Shown: positions 411 through 11,250 of the stretch, one piece after another | How positions within the stretch are numbered: position 1 is the first letter of the stretch | How the letters are laid out: the number at the start of each line of letters is the position of its first letter | Source: a virus | Taxonomy: Monodnaviria; Loebvirae; Hofneiviricota; Faserviricetes; Tubulavirales; Inoviridae | IMG/VR virus record: IMGVR_UViG_2663763400_000001 | Direction: 5' to 3' (one strand) | Length of the DNA: 11,250 nt | Notes under the pieces: generated by a model | What the model saw: only the letters and a program-made list of their open reading frames with translations | Told to the model about the DNA's origin: nothing | Databases searched by the model: none | Position numbers and translations under genes: made by a program

Positions 411-438
411 ATTTAACATAATATACATTATGCGCACC
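411..438 (-). other. dif: dif chromosome-dimer resolution site (XerC/XerD target), serving as the left prophage junction
   Basis: Plus strand reads ATTTAACATAATATACATTATGCGCACC, the exact reverse complement of the 28-bp E. coli dif sequence as I recall it (GGTGCGCATAA-TGTATA-TTATGTTAAAT). XerD arm 411-421, central region 422-427, XerC arm 428-438. Confidence 0.85.
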
Positions 439-1309: not shown

Positions 1310-2554
1310 TCAGTTCAGGTTGTCCCGGAACAGTTCACCGCTCCTCGCGGCGCTGCGGGGCGTCGCCCTGCTCCGGTCAACCTTTCTGACCTGAAGCATC
1401 ACCATAATATCAGTCTTGTTGCTTTCACTGGTACGGGAACCGAAGAAGCTCCAGCCGGAACTGGCCTTACTGTCTTTCTGTTCAGCAAGGCCACCAAGTA
1501 AAATAATATCACCATCTGCAAGGCTGACTTCGGTTGTTACATCACGCTTGATAAGGGTTGGCGAGTTATTGACGCCGGTTTCAGTGGTCACAAAGTTGGA
1601 AAGCTGCTGCTGAATCTTGAGATCCATTGTCCGACTTTTGATTGATGGCGTCACGTTAAACAAAACACCGCTGGAACGATATTCAACGGATTGCGTTGTC
1701 GTATTGTTATTCACCGTAACACTGCCCAGTACTGGCACATCAGAGCCGACTGAAAAAGACGCTGAGGCATTATTTTTTACCCGCAGTCGTGGCGCACTGA
1801 CAACAGTAAAACGACTGTCGGTTTTCAGCAGATTGAAAATGGCATCAATGGAGCCGGTTCGAATATTGATAAAATTATCCAGTCCGGCAGCACCAACTGA
1901 AATATTGAATTTATCAGACAGAATTTTAGCCGCTAAAAGAATGCCGGAGCCGTCAGACTGCGAGGTCTGAACCTCAAAAACATAACCAGAAACAACCACT
2001 TCATCACTCATCGTATCCAGCGAAGTGACCAGTGTTTTCAGGATGGCGATATCCTCTTTCGTACCATAATAAACCAGAATATCACCGGTTCGATTGATGT
2101 AGTTGCTTGCCCCTGATGAACCTTTTAGCGAATCGTCAGAAATCACGGCTCCACTGTTATTGAAGGAGCCTGAAACGTAGCCGCCAAGAATATCAGACAG
2201 GTAGGCAACAGAACGGTACTGAGGCGTATAAGTCCATGTATAACGTGGCTTAACCGGCTCTTTCGGCGTATAGGGCGCGATAAAATCAACACCCTTTTTC
2301 GTCCATATTCGAATGTTCATATTGCCAAGATAACGGGTTACAAATTCCCGTTCATCAATATCAGGTGTTAACCTGAATGTAATCATTCGTTCATCATTAA
2401 CAAGCTGTGGATCTAGCATATACGGGACTTTAAGCACCTCACTGTAAATAAGAGAAATAGCCTCCGGTAGCTTGACTTTATTTAATTCAAGCTCTGACCC
2501 TGCGAAAGCACATGAAGAAAATAGTAGCGTTAATGCGAGTAAAATCTTTTTCAT
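1310..2554 (-). CDS. Filamentous-phage secretin (pIV-like outer-membrane export channel), 414 aa
   Basis: N-terminal signal peptide MKKILLALTLLFSSCAFAGS. The C-terminal region has a secretin-like Gly/Ser-rich segment (DGDIILLGGLAEQKDSKASSGWSFFGSR...). The start codon overlaps the stop of the upstream Zot-like gene (TAATG at 2552-2556). Position matches gene IV of Ff phages. Confidence 0.85.
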   Translation of the reverse strand: MKKILLALTLLFSSCAFAGSELELNKVKLPEAISLIYSEVLKVPYMLDPQLVNDERMITFRLTPDIDEREFVTRYLGNMNIRIWTKKGVDFIAPYTPKEPVKPRYTWTYTPQYRSVAYLSDILGGYVSGSFNNSGAVISDDSLKGSSGASNYINRTGDILVYYGTKEDIAILKTLVTSLDTMSDEVVVSGYVFEVQTSQSDGSGILLAAKILSDKFNISVGAAGLDNFINIRTGSIDAIFNLLKTDSRFTVVSAPRLRVKNNASASFSVGSDVPVLGSVTVNNNTTTQSVEYRSSGVLFNVTPSIKSRTMDLKIQQQLSNFVTTETGVNNSPTLIKRDVTTEVSLADGDIILLGGLAEQKDSKASSGWSFFGSRTSESNKTDIMVMLQVRKVDRSRATPRSAARSGELFRDNLN

Positions 2555-3579
2555 TATTTTTTCCCCGTATAAAGCGTCACACGCTCACCATCAATAATTC
2601 CGCTCATCAACATCCCTTTGTAATTAAAACTGGATGCAGGAACGGCACGCAAAACACCGGCACCATTAACAAGAATCACAAACGCCCTGCCTTCACTGGT
2701 CATTCTCCCTGATATACGCCACTCGGTTGAAAGTGGCGGTTCAGCTGGTTCTGAGGGAGTATCTGGTGCTGGAGTAGCAGCGGAAGAACGAAACATGGCC
2801 GCATCACGTACATCTGTTGTAGTCAAATCTGGCGAGGGATCGCTTCGGCCAAACGTGCTGAAAAATGAGTAAATCAGCCAGCCTGACCCGATAAACATCA
2901 ATGGAAAAAGCACAAGAAAGAACCTGACTTTGCCAGAATTCCAGATGCTCTGGCGTTTATCTGTCTGCTTTTCATTACCGTTATTTCCTTCATAACTTTT
3001 GTAAAGTTCAAAAATATCAGGGTTATATTTATTGCGATAACTGGTGACGAGGTTGCTTTTATAGATTTTGTGGCCTGAATATACGTCAATGCAGTAATGA
3101 TTATTCAGGCCCAACGCTTTCAGCTTGCGCATCCGGTAAGTTGTTTCTATTTTGTCTTTCAGAAAGCGAGCAATATTAGAAAGTGACTGATTTACAATAA
3201 CCAAATCACAGCTAATACCCGTTTCAGGGTGCGTAAAATGACGATGTTCAGCAATAAATGATTTCTTCTCAGCCGTCATATCCTTATCGCTACCGAAGAT
3301 TCGCCATGCTTCATCAATAACAATTAAATCACCAAACTGGCAAAAGCTCCCTTCCCCACCTTTAAAAGGAAAGAAATCTGCTTTAAGCACATCATCATTA
3401 TCCACAACAATAATTTCTCCCGTTGCATCAGGATAACGTTCGGTGATTTTATCTTTTTGTAAACCATAAATGTTCGTCACAACTCTCCGGCCGCTGGTAA
3501 ATGCCGGAATAATGACATTGCAAACGGCTTCATAACTTTTTCCTGAGCCGGGTATGCCAATATATGCAGAAATAGCCAT
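2554..3579 (-). CDS. Zot/pI-like phage assembly ATPase (zonula occludens toxin family), 341 aa
   Basis: N-terminal Walker A motif (MAISAYIGIPGSGKS), a Walker-B-like hydrophobic stretch ending in DE (LIVIDEAW) and a central transmembrane segment (FFLVLFPLMFIGSGWLIYSFF). This is the architecture of Ff gene I and Zot proteins. It sits directly upstream of the secretin gene. Confidence 0.9.
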   Translation of the reverse strand: MAISAYIGIPGSGKSYEAVCNVIIPAFTSGRRVVTNIYGLQKDKITERYPDATGEIIVVDNDDVLKADFFPFKGGEGSFCQFGDLIVIDEAWRIFGSDKDMTAEKKSFIAEHRHFTHPETGISCDLVIVNQSLSNIARFLKDKIETTYRMRKLKALGLNNHYCIDVYSGHKIYKSNLVTSYRNKYNPDIFELYKSYEGNNGNEKQTDKRQSIWNSGKVRFFLVLFPLMFIGSGWLIYSFFSTFGRSDPSPDLTTTDVRDAAMFRSSAATPAPDTPSEPAEPPLSTEWRISGRMTSEGRAFVILVNGAGVLRAVPASSFNYKGMLMSGIIDGERVTLYTGKK

Positions 3580-3582
3580 AAC

Positions 3583-3870
3583 TCACCCTATAACAGGAAT
3601 ACGTCGAATAATAAAACGAGTAGCCATTGCGGAGATAATCATACTAATCCCCTGTGGTAATTTACTCAGGTTAATGAAGTACCAGAATCCGTCTGATAAA
3701 TTGGCAAACAGCGATGAGAGATTGCTTGAATCTGGCAGTAACTCAACAAGGATTTCAACGAAGCCCTGGACTACAAAATACAGCGCAAAGAATACGACGA
3801 ATTTAATAATCAATGACCGGAATACAAAACCTAACAAAGTATTTAATGCACTAATCAGAATCCCAAACAT
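3583..3870 (-). CDS. pVI-like minor coat / membrane protein, 95 aa
   Basis: Very hydrophobic small protein encoded between the pIII-like gene and the Zot-like gene, the position of gene VI in Ff phages. Strong AAGGAG Shine-Dalgarno 7 nt upstream of the ATG at 3868-3870. Confidence 0.55.
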   Translation of the reverse strand: MFGILISALNTLLGFVFRSLIIKFVVFFALYFVVQGFVEILVELLPDSSNLSSLFANLSDGFWYFINLSKLPQGISMIISAMATRFIIRRIPVIG

Positions 3871-3882
3871 AGTTGCACTCCT

Positions 3883-5595
3883 TTAGGCACTCAGAATAAT
3901 ACGGAGCGCAACAAATCCCCATATAATCAGAAATATGGTTTCTACGGCGCTTCTGTTCTGCTCAATTAACGGACAATGGGAGTCAATTCTGTACTGGTGA
4001 TTAAACACGCTGAATTCAACAACGGGGCAGGATGCTGAACGAGAGCCGATGTTAAATTCGTTTGTAAAAGGCAACAAGTTAATAATTGGCGTTAAAATAT
4101 CTCTTGCCGTTGGCGTTTCTTCAAGCTCAGGCTCTTTTACACCGGGATCTTCTCCCAAATCTATATTGCCATTATTTCCAGTGTCAGATCCTGAGTTGTT
4201 ATTAATGGTAATATCAATATTGACGTCAGCCCCTGCACTGTCAGATACAGGTGAAAGCATATCTAATAACGTTGGAGATAGCCTAAGTTCCGACATCGCA
4301 GAAGTTACTTCAGCCGGTGAAACCTCTTTAAACGGTAAGCCGTTATAATCGGCATTAACGGCAGCTTCAGACCACAGCTCGTTAATCATGTCGGCAAGAA
4401 GTGCTGGCGATACACTAACACTATCAAGATACTCCAGATAATCAATCATGGACTCAATATTTCCAGCCTCCAGTACTTCCGTCATGGCTTTATATTTGGT
4501 ATTGGTCCAGATAGTAAGCTCACTCTTTTCATCAATATCTTTTGCGGTGTAATCCTCTTTTTCAGGAACGGCACAAATCGTCGAATATCCACCATTTGAC
4601 TGATTAGTCGTTTTACAAGGCGTGTTGTGATACTGATATTGCTTTCCTGCTGTTAAATAAGCAACGCTGTAATACATGGGAAGCCCTGCTACATTTTCAT
4701 ACATGGGAATACCTGCGGGAAATGAAGATGCGGCCGGGTTGCTATACAAGTGTGTAATCTCAGGTATTTCATAAAATGAGGAAGGATAAGTAAACTTATA
4801 ATTCTGTTCAGTAAAGGATACATCTCCATTACTGTTGACAACTTTATTCGTCACAGTGCGTTCAAAATTCGTTAGTGTTTCAGTATAAGTACGCGAGTTA
4901 TAGTCATTAAGATAATTTCTGGCAATTTCAGTTGGATTATCACCATAGTAATAAATTAGCTCTTTCGAATCCTGATAATAATAAAGTGCATTATCTGGCG
5001 TGGAATATCCTGTTTCAACACCTACAACTGGAGAACCCGCATCCACATTATTACGACTAACATGAAGGATTACCGGACTTAATTCCTGTGGTTCAAAATT
5101 AACGGTTATCGTCTTACTTTCACCACTTTGACCACTGTACGTTACTTCATATAAATTATCGGAAATCTTTTTACCGTTAGTCATTACCATTACCGAGCCG
5201 TCAGATGAACTCAAAGAAGACGGAACAAAAGATGATACAGCAGCAGCAATACCCGCCCACGTTGCAACACCGCTCATTTTGTATGATGAGGCAGCAGGCA
5301 AGTATTCGGCAGCATTAGCCGCAGCGCGGCCAACAAAAACACGGGTTGCTGTAAGCTGTGATGCCGTATAAATCGCATCATTGGCAGCAAAGCGACGAAC
5401 AAGCACCCGGCCAACGACTTTAGGAATAACAGCCCGCGCAGCCACTGCTGCAATTGCTGGTACAAATGAATATGAATATCGGGGAAAGGAAACCCAGAGA
5501 AAGGAAAAAATAAAGGAATAAACCGTCAGCCTCTTAGCCCAAGAATAACGACATAAGCTGAGACGATCCCCCATAAAAGGGAACCCAATTTCCAT
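3883..5595 (-). CDS. pIII-like minor coat / host-adsorption protein (start codon uncertain; longest ORF 570 aa)
   Basis: Large ORF after the major coat gene with Gly/Ser/Asn-rich linker segments (for example NNNSGSDTGNNGNIDLGEDPGVKEPELEETP) and a C-terminal hydrophobic anchor (IFLIIWGFVALRIILSA), as in Ff pIII. The ATG at 5595 has GGAG 8 nt upstream. An alternative start at 5277 precedes a signal-peptide-like segment (MSGVATWAGIAAAVSSFV). Confidence 0.6.
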   Translation of the reverse strand: MEIGFPFMGDRLSLCRYSWAKRLTVYSFIFSFLWVSFPRYSYSFVPAIAAVAARAVIPKVVGRVLVRRFAANDAIYTASQLTATRVFVGRAAANAAEYLPAASSYKMSGVATWAGIAAAVSSFVPSSLSSSDGSVMVMTNGKKISDNLYEVTYSGQSGESKTITVNFEPQELSPVILHVSRNNVDAGSPVVGVETGYSTPDNALYYYQDSKELIYYYGDNPTEIARNYLNDYNSRTYTETLTNFERTVTNKVVNSNGDVSFTEQNYKFTYPSSFYEIPEITHLYSNPAASSFPAGIPMYENVAGLPMYYSVAYLTAGKQYQYHNTPCKTTNQSNGGYSTICAVPEKEDYTAKDIDEKSELTIWTNTKYKAMTEVLEAGNIESMIDYLEYLDSVSVSPALLADMINELWSEAAVNADYNGLPFKEVSPAEVTSAMSELRLSPTLLDMLSPVSDSAGADVNIDITINNNSGSDTGNNGNIDLGEDPGVKEPELEETPTARDILTPIINLLPFTNEFNIGSRSASCPVVEFSVFNHQYRIDSHCPLIEQNRSAVETIFLIIWGFVALRIILSA

Positions 5596-5618
5596 AATTC
5601 AATCTCCATAATAACCTC

Positions 5619-5646
5619 AAGTAAAACGGGCGATATTGCATCGCCC
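5619..5646 (-). terminator. Candidate intrinsic terminator or attenuator between the major coat gene and the pIII-like gene
   Basis: On the minus strand, GGGCGAT-GCAAT-ATCGCCC (7-bp GC-rich stem, 5628-5646) is followed by GUUUUACUU. Its position matches the known terminator downstream of gene VIII in Ff phages. Confidence 0.4.
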
Positions 5647-5659
5647 ATGAATAATGAAT

Positions 5660-5893
5660 TTATGCGGATTTAACGGTACGCAATACCCAGCGAACGCCAG
5701 CGACACCGGCATAAAGTGTTACCAGTGAAGCAGCAACGGCCATAATCGCAACCAGAACTGTACTGAAATCAATGCTGTTCGTCAGCGGCGATAAATCAAC
5801 ACCACTTGATGCCGCTCCTTCTGCAGCGAAAGTCGCGCCAGAAACAGCCATTAATGCAGGTACAGCCAGAAAACTAACGATTTTTTTAAACAT
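5660..5893 (-). CDS. Major coat protein (pVIII-like) precursor, 77 aa
   Basis: Signal peptide MFKKIVSFLAVPALMAVSGATFA, then a mature protein starting AEG... with an acidic N-terminus, a hydrophobic transmembrane core and a basic C-terminus (RWVLRTVKSA). This is the hallmark layout of inovirus major coat proteins; the M13 mature pVIII also starts AEG. GGAG ribosome-binding site 8 nt upstream. Confidence 0.8.
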   Translation of the reverse strand: MFKKIVSFLAVPALMAVSGATFAAEGAASSGVDLSPLTNSIDFSTVLVAIMAVAASLVTLYAGVAGVRWVLRTVKSA

Positions 5894-5927
5894 AACTCTA
5901 TCTCCATTACATTTTAAAGGTTCGCAT

Positions 5928-6179
5928 TCAAGCAGTACGAACCATCTTTATTACCTGTCCCACACCTACAGAAAAAAGCCAGAGCAGCAGGACAGAGCCA
6001 AAACCTAATGTCCAGTAATTTCCCATTGCAGAATAATCAATTTGATGAAATGGTTCAGAACGTACCATTATTGCCTGACATTCTTTTGCATTGTTCGCAT
6101 TACATAAATAACCTTCAATACGGTAACCATTTTCAGGAATATGATTATCAAACTGAATATCGAAACCTGATGCATCCAT
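5928..6179 (-). CDS. Small membrane protein, 83 aa, in the position of Ff minor coat proteins pVII/pIX
   Basis: ORF between the putative ssDNA-binding gene and the major coat gene. It has a C-terminal hydrophobic helix (YWTLGFGSVLLLWLFSVGVGQVI). The start is tightly spaced after the upstream stop (TGATTATG). Confidence 0.5.
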   Translation of the reverse strand: MDASGFDIQFDNHIPENGYRIEGYLCNANNAKECQAIMVRSEPFHQIDYSAMGNYWTLGFGSVLLLWLFSVGVGQVIKMVRTA

Positions 6180-6181
6180 AA

Positions 6182-6499
6182 TCAGCCTTTTATTTCAGTA
6201 ATGCCGCCATCTGATGAAATGTTATAAGTTACTCCTTCCCTCCCCTCCATTGACCAGACGCGAACATATACAGGTATCTGGACTAACTTACCGATAAAAT
6301 TATTTGCCTGATTCATTACACCGGCATTAACAAGAGCCTGAGATACACGAATAATAATCTGGTCTTGCTTAGTGCCGCCAAAACCATCAGGAATCTCTAA
6401 GCCAACACCAATTTCATTATAGTATCCCTGACCATTGACCTTATTACGCTGGCGAGCACCAAGCATTTTACCTTTTACAAAAAGACCATAATTAGACAT
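6182..6499 (-). CDS. Putative ssDNA-binding protein (gene V equivalent, by position and size), 105 aa
   Basis: Small ORF immediately downstream of the replication initiator gene, with a strong AAGGAG Shine-Dalgarno that overlaps the initiator stop codon. The assignment is positional; I could not confirm sequence similarity to Ff gV by eye. Confidence 0.45.
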   Translation of the reverse strand: MSNYGLFVKGKMLGARQRNKVNGQGYYNEIGVGLEIPDGFGGTKQDQIIIRVSQALVNAGVMNQANNFIGKLVQIPVYVRVWSMEGREGVTYNISSDGGITEIKG

Positions 6500-6510
6500 A
6501 TCACTCTCCT

Positions 6511-7563
6511 TTAATGCCAGTTACTGGCATGTGAAATACGGTTATAATCGAAAATTAAACCTTTCTCATAAACCCATGATGGAATTTTGGCTGGTTTGGC
6601 TTCAAGAGTACGAACCAACGGAACAACGTTATTAGAATCCGGTGACTCACAATAAAAGTTAATATCTATTCCGAAAGAAAGTAATTCTTTACGGTGTCGG
6701 TAGAATGTAGGTTTCGGTAACATCTCTTTCATGTTCGCGCCCTGCTTCCACAATAAATATGTAGACTGTATTTTTCTTGGGAGATTAATTATTTTTTCAT
6801 CAGTTAATATAGTATTTTGATTCATTTCTATTCTCCCTACATAGTCAGAGAATAATTTATTGGGCGTCTCAATATTCCAGCTATTACCAAGCGTAAGATT
6901 CAAATCAATTAATTCAGTTGTTCTTAATGTTAATTCAATGCGTAATTTATCTTTTGACCAGTCCAGTAAACCAGCTTTAACGAATTCGTCTGCCATCTGG
7001 TGCCCTTTTTTGCCAGATGTATGCTCATCATATTTTGAATAAAATTTCAGGCTCCAACGACGGGAGTTTTTCCCTAAGTAAACAGTGCCACCTTTACCAC
7101 AGGCGCGACCGTGGCGAGTTTTAGCTTTAAATTCTGCGGCATATAACCATGCGCGGACATTTTCTAATGTTGACAATGAATACATGTAATTGATATCGAT
7201 GCGCGAGATCTTAAATTGCCCTTCCATGACCTGCCGATAGGATGGTAGATCATGAGGAATATGCAGTAATGCCAATATTCTGGCGTAAGCTGTTAACACC
7301 AACCCTTGCAAATCGTCGGAACCGATAACAGAGTGACCTTGCAAAAACTTTGATGGATTACCGTCAATGTAGAGATGTGTTGCCCGACCTTCACCATCAG
7401 ATCCAACAGACCTTACTTTCATTGTGGACTCATGCGAACCGCGAACGGTCAACCGTTTTACTGTTTCCCACTCCACTGCACCGTCAGCATCGACGCTGAC
7501 GACACTACCAGCCGGTAACGGTCGGTGTGTGCAAGGCAGGATTCCGGTAAACCAGTCGATCAT
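6511..7563 (-). CDS. Rolling-circle replication initiation protein (pII / RstA-like), 350 aa
   Basis: First gene of the minus-strand phage operon, about 350 aa with N-terminus MIDWFTGILP... Size, position and divergent arrangement with an HTH repressor match the replication initiators of integrating filamentous phages. Confidence 0.75.
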   Translation of the reverse strand: MIDWFTGILPCTHRPLPAGSVVSVDADGAVEWETVKRLTVRGSHESTMKVRSVGSDGEGRATHLYIDGNPSKFLQGHSVIGSDDLQGLVLTAYARILALLHIPHDLPSYRQVMEGQFKISRIDINYMYSLSTLENVRAWLYAAEFKAKTRHGRACGKGGTVYLGKNSRRWSLKFYSKYDEHTSGKKGHQMADEFVKAGLLDWSKDKLRIELTLRTTELIDLNLTLGNSWNIETPNKLFSDYVGRIEMNQNTILTDEKIINLPRKIQSTYLLWKQGANMKEMLPKPTFYRHRKELLSFGIDINFYCESPDSNNVVPLVRTLEAKPAKIPSWVYEKGLIFDYNRISHASNWH

Positions 7564-9661: not shown

Positions 9662-10984
9662 TTACTTAATACCGTATTCTCGGCTTAACCGACCGTGCAA
9701 CCTCAACACATTGGTTTCAACTGCCGTCACCACGTTCTCCGGAAAATCTGTCGGTAATGAAGTCTTCACGTTATCCAGTGCTGCCGGAATCATTCTGGCA
9801 AAGTCACTCAGGATTTCATGCATCTGCACTTCCGGGAATTTCAGCACCTTTGCTGTCGCCAGAAAATGTCGCGGATAAATTTTATCGATTGCCGTTTTTT
9901 TGCCTTTGGATGCGTTAAGCCCCATTGCCAGTTTGAGATCGCTGATGTGTATTCCCGTACCGCCAAGGACCGGAAATGCCGAAATGATGTCATAAAATGG
10001 TGTGAGCCGATAACTGCCGCCAGCCTGAATAAATACGGAGAAGTTTTTTGCATGGCCATCTGTTGCGCCAATCAACCACTGGAAGACCTGAAACTTCATA
10101 AAATCATAGCGATCTTTCAGCGCCTCGCTGGACCCCATCAAAAAAGCCATAATTTGCGCGATACCGGGGCCTCCATCTGATTCATATTTCACCGATGAAG
10201 GTAAACCGAATGTCTGGCACATATCCTCCTGTGGCAAGCGAAGTAAAACCGTTCGCTCAGTATTCCAACGCCTGTCAAAACGTTTGACCGCTAACGCGCG
10301 CACCCTTCCCGCTTTAATGATTTCTGCGTCCGGAACATTCAACCCGAGTTCTTTCGCCAGCAGCAAACAGTAATACTCATTATCAACGCTTTGGCTAAGA
10401 TCGAGCGTCGCATTGGGCTGTCTGATTTCGCCAATCGGCAATTTGATAATGTGCGTCGTTGGCGTTATTCCCTTCGGAATGCACCAGTCATTGCCTATTC
10501 TGAGCAGCGCAGTCTTCTCCTGTGCGCCAGCAACCGAGATGCGAAAGTCATTTTCTTCTCTAATCATGCCTAACGGGATATCTGCTTTATAAGCCGTTAA
10601 TACTTCTTCAAGTCTGGCTTCAGTAAGCTTTTCCCATGCCATTATCGGACACATTACGGTTTCATCTTCGGGGATTAACGTCACGGCACCAACGCTGTCT
10701 CGCCCTATTTCTGACAATAAATCAAACGGTTGTCTGGATTTAGCATGATAACGTTTAACGATCCGGTCACGTACAATCGGGCTATCGGGTAACAGGTTAT
10801 CGAAGAAGTTAAATACGGCATCAGAGGTGATATTCCTCCTCTGCAATGGCAGCGAAAGTGACAACGGTCTGGCATAACGGCTGGCTAACCACTCAGGTGC
10901 ATACTTAAAGGTGTGCGCGCCGTTGGCTAACTTCGTTAACTCGCCTACCCGCTGGTTGTTCATCCAAGTGACTAGTTTAGGCAT
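9662..10984 (-). CDS. hipA: HipA serine/threonine kinase toxin of the HipBA type II toxin-antitoxin system, 440 aa
   Basis: From the ATG at 10982-10984 the product MPKLVTWMNNQRVGELTKLANGAHTFKYAPEWLASRYARPLSLSLPLQR... matches E. coli HipA essentially along its length, from memory. The start overlaps the hipB stop by 1 nt. The longer ORF reaching 11041 is an upstream in-frame extension into hipB. Confidence 0.95.
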   Translation of the reverse strand: MPKLVTWMNNQRVGELTKLANGAHTFKYAPEWLASRYARPLSLSLPLQRRNITSDAVFNFFDNLLPDSPIVRDRIVKRYHAKSRQPFDLLSEIGRDSVGAVTLIPEDETVMCPIMAWEKLTEARLEEVLTAYKADIPLGMIREENDFRISVAGAQEKTALLRIGNDWCIPKGITPTTHIIKLPIGEIRQPNATLDLSQSVDNEYYCLLLAKELGLNVPDAEIIKAGRVRALAVKRFDRRWNTERTVLLRLPQEDMCQTFGLPSSVKYESDGGPGIAQIMAFLMGSSEALKDRYDFMKFQVFQWLIGATDGHAKNFSVFIQAGGSYRLTPFYDIISAFPVLGGTGIHISDLKLAMGLNASKGKKTAIDKIYPRHFLATAKVLKFPEVQMHEILSDFARMIPAALDNVKTSLPTDFPENVVTAVETNVLRLHGRLSREYGIK

Positions 10985-11250
10985 CACCACTCCAGATCTT
11001 GCTGTTCTGTTGCTTCTGGCGAGGCATTTTTTGCGTCGCATAGCGTCATTGAGAGTTCAAGCGACTGTAAAATCTTAAAAAATGTCGTGAGCGAGGTATT
11101 GTTAGGATTGTTTTCGAAATTGGAAATTGTCGCCTGCTTAATGCCGATTTTTTTCGCCAACTCGCTCTGCGTCCAGCCGTTTTGCTGGCGAACCAGTTTC
11201 ATTGCATTCGCCAATTGCATTGGGCTATAGATCTTCTGAAAGCTCATCAT
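10984..11250 (-). CDS. hipB: HipB antitoxin / HTH transcriptional repressor, 88 aa
   Basis: Product MMSFQKIYSPMQLANAMKLVRQQNGWTQSELAKKIGIKQATISNFENN... matches E. coli HipB (XRE-family HTH), from memory. The start codon lies at the window edge (11248-11250); the promoter and operators are beyond the window. Confidence 0.95.
   Translation of the reverse strand: MMSFQKIYSPMQLANAMKLVRQQNGWTQSELAKKIGIKQATISNFENNPNNTSLTTFFKILQSLELSMTLCDAKNASPEATEQQDLEW

Follow-up and report, generated by a model that had tools for sequence, protein, structure and literature searches.

The pIII-like adsorption gene in the virus record IMGVR_UViG_2663763400_000001 of IMG/VR (11,250 nt, the whole stretch being called the window below) opens with 106 codons of odd composition. 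Our overall reading, to which we give a probability of about 0.75, is that the gene starts at ATG 5595 and that its first part encodes a signal peptide followed by a conserved helical segment, while the n-region of the signal peptide is overlapped by a small gene in another frame. A first-pass annotation had treated these 106 codons as an unusual N-terminal extension: a long atypical leader, a small membrane protein fused in frame, or a frameshift hiding a separate small gene, with the true signal peptide perhaps beginning at ATG 5277. The observations behind that suggestion hold well. The frame is open from ATG 5595 behind a good GGAG; residues 1-106 consist to 62% of A, V, R, S, F and Y (A19, V11, R10, S10, F9, Y7); the two hydrophobic stretches are found as Kyte-Doolittle peaks (15-residue windows) at residues 23-37 (1.76) and 43-57 (1.89, including an Arg), with a further one at 110-124 (1.69); and ATG 5277 is in frame, at codon 107, without a ribosome-binding site. 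The features concerned are listed here, with coordinates given on the minus strand of the window unless stated.

3883-5595, minus strand: pIII-like adsorption/minor-coat gene, 570 codons plus stop (PHROG)
5604-5607, minus strand: Shine-Dalgarno (SD) element GGAG for ATG 5595, 8-nt spacing, anti-SD duplex -6.4 kcal/mol, equal to the value for the major-coat gene gVIII
5530-5595, minus strand: n-region of the predicted signal peptide, codons 1-22, ending in Lys21-Arg22, overlapped by the small gene
5485-5529, minus strand: predicted h-region LTVYSFIFSFLWVSF, codons 23-37, Kyte-Doolittle mean 1.76, aligned with the h-regions of relatives
5467-5484, minus strand: predicted c-region PRYSYS, codons 38-43, aligned with the AxA or SxS before the cut and NP after it in the family
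5203-5466, minus strand: Ala/Arg-rich helical segment, codons 44-131, delimited by purifying selection, motifs and AlphaFold2 (AF2)
5526-5609, minus strand: small gene, 27 codons plus TGA, product MEIELWKLGSLLWGIVSAYVVILGLRG, in the +1 frame relative to the pIII-like gene, 70-nt overlap
5615-5618, minus strand: SD element GAGG of the small gene, 5 nt before ATG 5609, anti-SD duplex -6.3 kcal/mol
5626-5648, minus strand: terminator-like GC hairpin of 10 pairs with T-run, just past the major-coat gene
5443-5445, minus strand: GTG 5445, Val51, the RefSeq/PGAP start of WP_000741236.1 (520 aa; L001 6256-7818), no SD, +0.9 kcal/mol
5275-5277, minus strand: ATG 5277, Met107 (MSGVATWAGIAAAVSSFV), internal, no SD, +2.2 kcal/mol

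Is the extension translated at all? Homologues were collected with a word-indexed search, and synonymous and non-synonymous differences (Sd and Nd) and dN/dS were compared at codon level between the window and its relatives. Seven full-length homologues of 570-581 aa, about 36-89% identical (89, 83, 66, 64, 37, 36%), align from residue 1, and even homologues of as little as 26-38% identity retain the whole extension. In the 12 lineages checked, 43-95 nt separate the major-coat gene from the called start. Over codons 23-131 dN/dS is 0.02-0.17, and in the remainder of the protein it is 0.07-0.13, so that the constraint on the extension is no weaker than elsewhere. Within this stretch, codons 23-58 give 0.06-0.17 and codons 59-106 give 0.02-0.06; over the latter codons the window and locus L009 differ by 27 synonymous and 4 non-synonymous changes. 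Since homologues keep the extension, the gap to the upstream gene is short, purifying selection acts in frame and no other start is available, the comparison indicates that the extension is a real translated coding sequence. The first-pass annotation had named just this alignment as what would speak against an atypical N-terminus, and in essence it does: similarity runs through the extension, and the Met1 codon is ATG in 9/9 close-family loci.

There is a further question, why the first codons look so peculiar. In the long frame, codons 1-22 show Sd of 0-2 and Nd of 3-13 in every pair, that is, dN/dS above 1. They look unconstrained because the +1 frame is the constrained one. A reading frame of 27 codons in that frame, missed in the first-pass annotation, spans codons 1-23 of the long open reading frame (ORF). 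It is open and conserved in 12/12 lineages, and it always stops at the boundary between the n-region and the h-region of the signal peptide. Its product is 74-83% identical between lineages whose pIII-like proteins share 28-31%. Between the window and L009, the small frame shows Sd 8 and Nd 1 in the overlap, where the long frame shows Sd 0 and Nd 8 (Fisher p = 4e-4); for the contrast within the long frame between codons 1-22 and codons 23-131, Fisher p = 7e-6. A GAGG or AGGTG stands at the place equivalent to the small gene's own SD element in most relatives. Judged from these substitution patterns, the small gene is real and strongly constrained. The invariant residues of the n-region, Gly9, Tyr17, Ser18 and Arg22, face conserved codons of the small frame (e.g., Trp-Gly, Gly), and they are probably by-products of those codons. 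Thus the suspicion of a small gene hidden near the start was right as to the gene, but the frameshift that was to hide it was not borne out.

The small protein has 24-29 residues in the 12 lineages, a hydrophobic core and, in most, a basic residue near the C-terminus. Examples from six relatives are as follows.

L003: MWDIVVFLWGLLCAWAVIQGLSGH
L012: MHSDLLTLVVFLWGLLCAWAVIQGLKG
L042: MNAELLTLVVFIWGLLCAWAVIQGFKG
L044: MELQTIDFVVFLWGLMCAWAVIQGLKG
L041: MWELMSFFTGVICGWAIVQGLKG
L011: MLWDLAYFLLGIICGWVVVIGLND

It forms a single hydrophobic helix without a signal peptide, matching pVII/pIX-type proteins in size and shape. RefSeq annotation lacks the gene. A 40-aa version from ATG 5648 is listed in databases as a "hypothetical protein" of Y. 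pestis; that start is unlikely, as it has no SD (+1.6 kcal/mol), lies in the terminator stem, and its first 13 residues are not conserved. No PHROG match was found for the 40-aa version, and no Pfam match for the small protein even at E up to 1, short proteins being hard to detect. For the small protein, the size, hydrophobicity and position, together with the counterpart ORF29 in the Vibrio phage VGJphi, point to a minor virion or assembly protein as the most likely role. A GC-rich hairpin with a T-run is found after the major-coat gene at the same position in every relative (L003, L004, L006, L009, L011, L012, L041-L044) with differing stem sequences, which has the marks of a conserved intrinsic terminator, as in the Ff phages. 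Because both genes follow this terminator and their starts are 14 nt apart, joint expression at a low level, on transcripts that read through it, is probable.

Could the small ORF instead be a regulatory leader, which tunes initiation of the adsorption gene and has no structural or assembly function? The starts of the two genes lie 2-14 nt apart with SD elements shared or abutting, so that initiation at one must interfere with the other, and in distant lineages the TGGGGG of the small frame sits 5 nt before the likely start of the pIII gene. A positional leader, however, would not need purifying selection on its amino acids (Sd 8, Nd 1; 74-83% identity), and in its size and its hydrophobic helix the product is like the minor proteins known from inoviruses, with a non-overlapping counterpart in VGJphi. 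We consider a leader without a protein role unlikely, though it keeps a little more weight than the other alternatives below. The two roles are not mutually exclusive.

Then which start does the adsorption gene use? ATG 5595-5593 is the first possible start of the ORF, an in-frame TGA standing two codons upstream. The GGAG at 5607-5604 is made by codons Met1-Glu2 of the small gene (ATG GAG), and Glu2 is GAG in all close-family loci. The A of ATG 5595 is the third base of a small-gene Leu codon, and it stays A across TTA and CTA in 9 loci. In L009, in-frame start codons before codon 107 are present only at codons 1 and 8, with no ATG, GTG or TTG in codons 9-106. As no other in-frame start is conserved, entry is expected at codon 1 or codon 8, and by this inventory ATG 5595 is most likely the start in the window lineage. 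A separate observation is that the initiation regions of the major-coat gene (5894-5913) and of the adsorption gene (5596-5615) are near-identical, AUGGAGAU(A/U)GA(G/A)UU-AUG, which may reflect a duplication or a shared regulatory element.

Entry at codon 8 (ATG 5574) would give the same gene with an n-region of 15 residues and leave ATG 5595 unused. At codon 8 the window, L010 and L009 have ATG, L006 and L016 have TTG, and L007 has GTG; the distant homologues P0026 and P0034 are called from the equivalent place (profile position 8). Against this, the codon is CTG in the Brenneria locus L015; the Leu-Trp codons of the small gene already require an NTG there, which makes its presence little informative; and the SD for Met8 is weak (-3.6 kcal/mol against -6.4 for ATG 5595). 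A start at Met8 is accordingly a poor candidate, to which we give low odds.

Three other entry points were rejected. ATG 5277 lacks an SD, lies within the conserved folded region, and is not conserved: codon 107 is ATA or ATC (Ile) in L006, L007, L015 and L016, and it is non-Met in distant relatives. The idea of a true signal peptide or alternative start at this codon is therefore given up. GTG 5445 also has no SD; codon 51 is GTA, ATT, GTC or GTT in relatives, and purifying selection acts upstream of it, in codons 23-50. Reinitiation at the stop of the small gene fails since the overlapping codon is CTG, ATA or TTA, and the next canonical start comes no earlier than codon 51.

Distant lineages give a hint of how the start at ATG 5595 may have arisen. 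There the Trp-Gly codons of the small gene produce a G-run (TGGGGG), and the likely pIII start follows close behind, at a distance of 5 nt in eight lineages and of 6 nt in L011. Apart from L004 (GTG), this start codon is always ATG, and it opens the motif M(R/C)(L/M)G. The corresponding codon is CTC in the window, and CTC or TTC across the lineage of the phages YpfPhi and CUS-1, to which the window belongs as described below. In this lineage the small gene has an N-terminal extension of five residues, MEIEL, whose ATG-GAG supplies the GGAG and whose Leu-Trp junction supplies ATG 5595. The start associated with the G-run is probably the ancestral one, as far as the alignment of these lineages tells.

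What does the protein begin with? We infer that residues 1-43 are a Sec-type signal peptide, with a predicted signal peptidase I cut after Ser43, between SYS and FVP. In the alignment the window reads AKR-LTVYSFIFSFLWVSF-PRYSYS and, past the cut, FVPAIAAV. Lys21-Arg22 directly precede the h-region, and K or R is found there in nearly all relatives. Distant relatives have the textbook layout of K/R, 15-20 hydrophobic residues and AxA or SxS, usually followed by NP; one example is MRLGSHSRFKG-LVCYSLSAAILFSSF-PRPAHA with NPVLIG after the cut. The triplets at -3 to -1 in the family are AVA, AYA, AFA, AHA, ASA, VKA, SYS, CYS, AYS, SVA and VYA, and in 14/14 listed cleavage sites position -1 is A or S and position -3 is A, S, V or C. 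AF2 gives a pLDDT of 30-63 for residues 1-50, and below 50 for residues 33-45. To this extent the long atypical leader of the first-pass annotation stands: residues 1-43 are leader-like, but residues 44-131 appear to belong to the mature protein.

The evidence for the latter segment is as follows. Two motifs are found family-wide in residues 44-131, V.ARRAA and P..SSL(K/R)..G..TW(A)G. AlphaFold2 with an alignment of 17 sequences reached a mean pLDDT of 73.7 (43 in an earlier run with 7 sequences). Residues 51-130 have a pLDDT of 77-92, with helices at 46-53, 56-71, 78-96 and 113-119, and run on into a confidently predicted beta-rich region. Codons 107-124, the stretch that had looked like a signal peptide before, lie inside this conserved, confidently folded segment, and in distant relatives residues 107-124 are rich in G, A, S, T and N and not hydrophobic (e.g., GKVTWGALNVAGGVMTATELLD). 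The confidently folded model thus presents residues 44-131 as a conserved helical start of the mature protein, not as a leader.

Another view of the same residues is a permanent membrane module, in which the first stretch is an uncleaved anchor or one half of a hairpin with residues 44-58, residues 59-106 are cytoplasmic, and residues 107-124 are an internal export signal or a second anchor, not far from what the first-pass annotation had in mind. The three hydrophobic peaks and the net positive residues 59-106 are in its favour, as is the c-region of the window, SYS, which is not a classic AxA. It is opposed by the loss of hydrophobicity at 107-124 in distant relatives, by Arg54 within residues 43-57 and the poor crude Hessa-scale sum of that stretch (3.4-6.4), by the clean AxA site before NP that the family has right after the first stretch, and by the AF2 fold of residues 51-130, continuous with the beta-rich region. 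With this balance the membrane module seems to us improbable, on a level with the start at Met8.

Is the module perhaps a separate small membrane protein that has been joined in frame to the adsorption protein? With a profile built on residues 1-135, a search through 1.84 billion representative proteins gave 22 matches, all with the module at or near the N-terminus. The full-length ones are pIII-like proteins of 450-606 aa; the short ones look truncated or frameshift-garbled, of which three were read (P0021, P0022, P0027). No stand-alone copy of the module turned up in this search. An in-frame fusion was rejected, as the module is seen only at the N-terminus of pIII-like proteins or in garbled short hits. 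In the three proteins that were read, homopolymer runs mark changes between the frame of the small gene and the long one (e.g., a T-run deletion in CCCTTTTATG); these proteins are garbled elsewhere too and look like indel-rich assemblies, not biological fusions.

A programmed -1 frameshift joining the two frames, so that the small-gene sequence would head the adsorption protein and the small peptide would be the non-shifted product, is highly improbable and was rejected for want of a conserved slippery site. It is true that every lineage has the long frame at -1 relative to the small gene, that in L012, L042 and L044 this frame is closed upstream with its start deep inside the small gene, and that heptamers with a slippery look occur in single lineages (T TTT TTG in L004, T TTA AAA in L007). 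But no such heptamer is conserved and none occurs in the window overlap, each lineage has an in-frame long-frame start with an SD-like element, a fusion would place a second hydrophobic helix before an otherwise classical signal peptide, and the database "fusions" P0021, P0022 and P0027 are garbled throughout.

Some points weigh against the reading of a signal peptide with an overlapping small gene, and they should be noticed. An n-region of 22 residues is long for a signal peptide, and the 15 residues that Met8 would give are more typical. In L012, L042 and L044 the position equivalent to Met1 falls where the long frame is closed, and the likely start is 11 codons downstream (GGGGG-N5-ATG). 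The cleavage site was placed by the -3/-1 rule and the family alignment, not by a dedicated predictor. The net charge of residues 59-106 is about +5, and with such a charge the positive-inside rule favours the cytoplasm and an uncleaved topology. The role given to the small protein draws on its size, hydrophobicity and position, with neither a Pfam nor a PHROG match to add. No published experiments that determine the virion protein's N-terminus or its translation start were found.

If the preferred reading is right, the following scenario may be drawn. Translation would begin at ATG 5595, the product would be exported by Sec, and signal peptidase I would cut after Ser43 to leave Phe44 at the N-terminus. 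Residues 44 to about 131 would reach the periplasm and then the virion tip as part of the adsorption protein. In the overlap, selection would act on the small protein, and the n-region would tolerate what the small gene allows. The small protein would be a minor virion or assembly component, functionally like pVII/pIX of Ff. More tentatively, these elements may be joined in one scheme, which we hold possible and rather doubtful as a whole. The small gene would encode a strongly conserved component of the virion or of its assembly that has gone unrecognised in a whole clade of inoviruses, enterobacterial and metagenomic, and the overlap itself would be functional. Ribosomes would bind for the adsorption gene at the Met-Glu or, in other lineages, the Trp-Gly codons of the small gene, competition between starts 2-14 nt apart would set the proportion of the two minor proteins made from rare read-through transcripts, and the start would have moved 11 codons upstream in YpfPhi/CUS-1.

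The rest of the pIII-like protein is described as follows. The family phrog_3942 covers its residues 28-570 (E 4.5e-253), and four other inovirus PHROG families match its C-terminal part, residues 467-570. With residues 400-570, tblastn against phages matches two inovirus genomes (E 7e-21), through the C-terminal domain only. The C-terminus is a hydrophobic membrane anchor, ending TIFLIIWGFVALRIILSA. Neither an Ff-like N1/N2 receptor-binding fold nor Pfam g3p domains were found in the protein, and Pfam gave nothing useful for the ORF or its distant homologues. In a sequence profile search of PDB with the ORF, the best E was 0.16; residues 86-174 have weak, non-significant matches there (E 0.16-0.5) to baseplate spike proteins of the phage P2 gpV type. 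Several assemblies have versions of about 396 aa (P0005, P0006, P0008) that are 98-99% identical to the window's protein, and the one from Klebsiella spallanzanii (P0008/L018) matches over residues 1-391. These look like truncated copies, possibly pseudogenes.

The window element has the complete inovirus gene set, in the minus-strand order gII, gV, orf83, gVIII, pIII-like ORF, DUF2523, Zot and secretin. The neighbouring features are listed below.

9662-11250: hipA/hipB (hipBA), at the other prophage end from the dif site
6511-7563, minus strand: gII-like replication protein (Pfam)
6182-6499, minus strand: gV-like DNA-binding protein (Pfam)
5928-6179, minus strand: orf83, 83-aa membrane protein (PHROG)
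5660-5893, minus strand: major coat protein (gVIII-like), the upstream neighbour of the pIII-like gene (phrog_2186 "virion structural protein", E 4e-29)
3583-3870, minus strand: DUF2523 (gVI-like) (Pfam)
2554-3579, minus strand: Zot (gI-like) (Pfam)
1310-2554, minus strand: secretin (Pfam)
411-438, minus strand: dif site of 28 bp, an exact E. coli match (0 mismatches), at one prophage end

The match of the major coat protein to Pfam Phage_Coat_B is weak (E 0.0016) and under the cut-off. The orf83 product (5928-6179; L019 1433-1678) combines two Cys in its N-terminal domain with a hydrophobic helix at the C-terminus. The ends at dif and hipBA are consistent with XerCD-mediated integration. From the dif integration, the gene set and a 100% identical adsorption protein in Y. 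pestis, the element is identified by sequence as a dif-integrating filamentous (inovirus) prophage of E. coli of the YpfPhi/CUS-1 type. A 1.8-kb region is found at 95-100% identity in 109 of 5,426 complete E. coli genomes, with at least 80% of the region in 107, and two tandem copies in Yersinia pestis NCTC5923 encode the 100% identical pIII-like protein. Matches in a scan of IMG/VR were mostly identical copies, and megablast against phage genomes gave nothing useful.

The position of the pIII-like gene between gVIII and the gVI-like gene, with Zot after it, is the same in all related loci except L007 and L008. In these two (L007 3719-4411, L008 5934-6626; the lineage of P0009) the adsorption gene is followed directly by a secretin fragment of 230 aa, without DUF2523 and Zot, and they look like degraded prophages. 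In L008 the replication-regulator module is present in duplicate. In strain SF-173 (L001) the prophage is in tandem repeat. The entry NZ_CP128883.1 (L002, 9,565 bp, circular), deposited as an untypable "plasmid" of E. coli TUM14759, has the same phage gene set and is probably the circular replicative form of the window phage.

How does this arrangement compare with known systems? The dif integration next to hipBA and the gene order are those published for YpfPhi/CUS-1 (PMC4266046), and the window is a member of the group. There, puvA is the predicted receptor-binding virion protein, in a morphogenesis module YPO2276-YPO2278 (the window ORF is not assigned to one YPO number), and disruption of YPO2277 abolishes particle production (PMC4266046). 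Both phages are associated with the fitness of bacteria during infection, and no receptor is known for either (PMC4266046). In the YpfPhi/CUS-1 literature covered, which does not extend to the primary papers (Gonzalez 2002; Chouikha 2010), neither the signal peptide nor the helical segment at the N-terminus nor the small gene was found described.

VGJphi, a Fibrovirus, has the same order, with orf81, orf44 (coat), orf29 (putative minor capsid) and orf493 (adsorption). Both this phage and the window clade have a protein of 81-83 aa with a C-terminal hydrophobic helix, then the major coat, a hydrophobic protein of 24-29 aa and the adsorption gene, though there is no evident sequence similarity between their proteins; orf83 corresponds in architecture and position to ORF81 ("putative minor capsid protein"). 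There are two differences. In VGJphi orf29 stops 25 nt before orf493, whereas the small gene of the window overlaps the adsorption gene; and ORF493 has an ordinary short signal peptide (MVMFMRKFFIISLVISLYFTVLPAFA, cut before A) with the domain directly after it, without the Ala/Arg-rich segment. In the Ff phages (M13/fd/f1), g3p comes after the major coat and a terminator and before gVI, and its product has a signal peptide and a C-terminal anchor; pVII and pIX are hydrophobic minor proteins of roughly 30 residues. The window resembles Ff in the position of the adsorption gene, the predicted N-terminal signal peptide, the C-terminal anchor and the small hydrophobic protein. The small gene lies between gVIII and the pIII-like gene, while the position of the pVII/pIX type in Ff, between gV and gVIII, is held here by orf83.

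The extension itself is thus ordinary biology of a known phage. What the analysis adds is a corrected start, the predicted Phe44 N-terminus and the overlapping gene, which normally goes unannotated. With its start at GTG 5445, the RefSeq model takes the predicted export signal away from a protein that has to leave the cytoplasm, and the 27-codon gene is lost since gene callers pass over genes of such length; the two faults are repeated in Y. pestis and in the 107 complete E. coli genomes with the region. An odd composition at the 5' end of a gene can mark an overlapping frame, and a frame-by-frame comparison of synonymous and non-synonymous differences shows such an overlap fast. Phe44 as the probable mature N-terminus guides the choice of constructs, and the conserved helical segment behind it is the region for tests of receptor or Tol binding.

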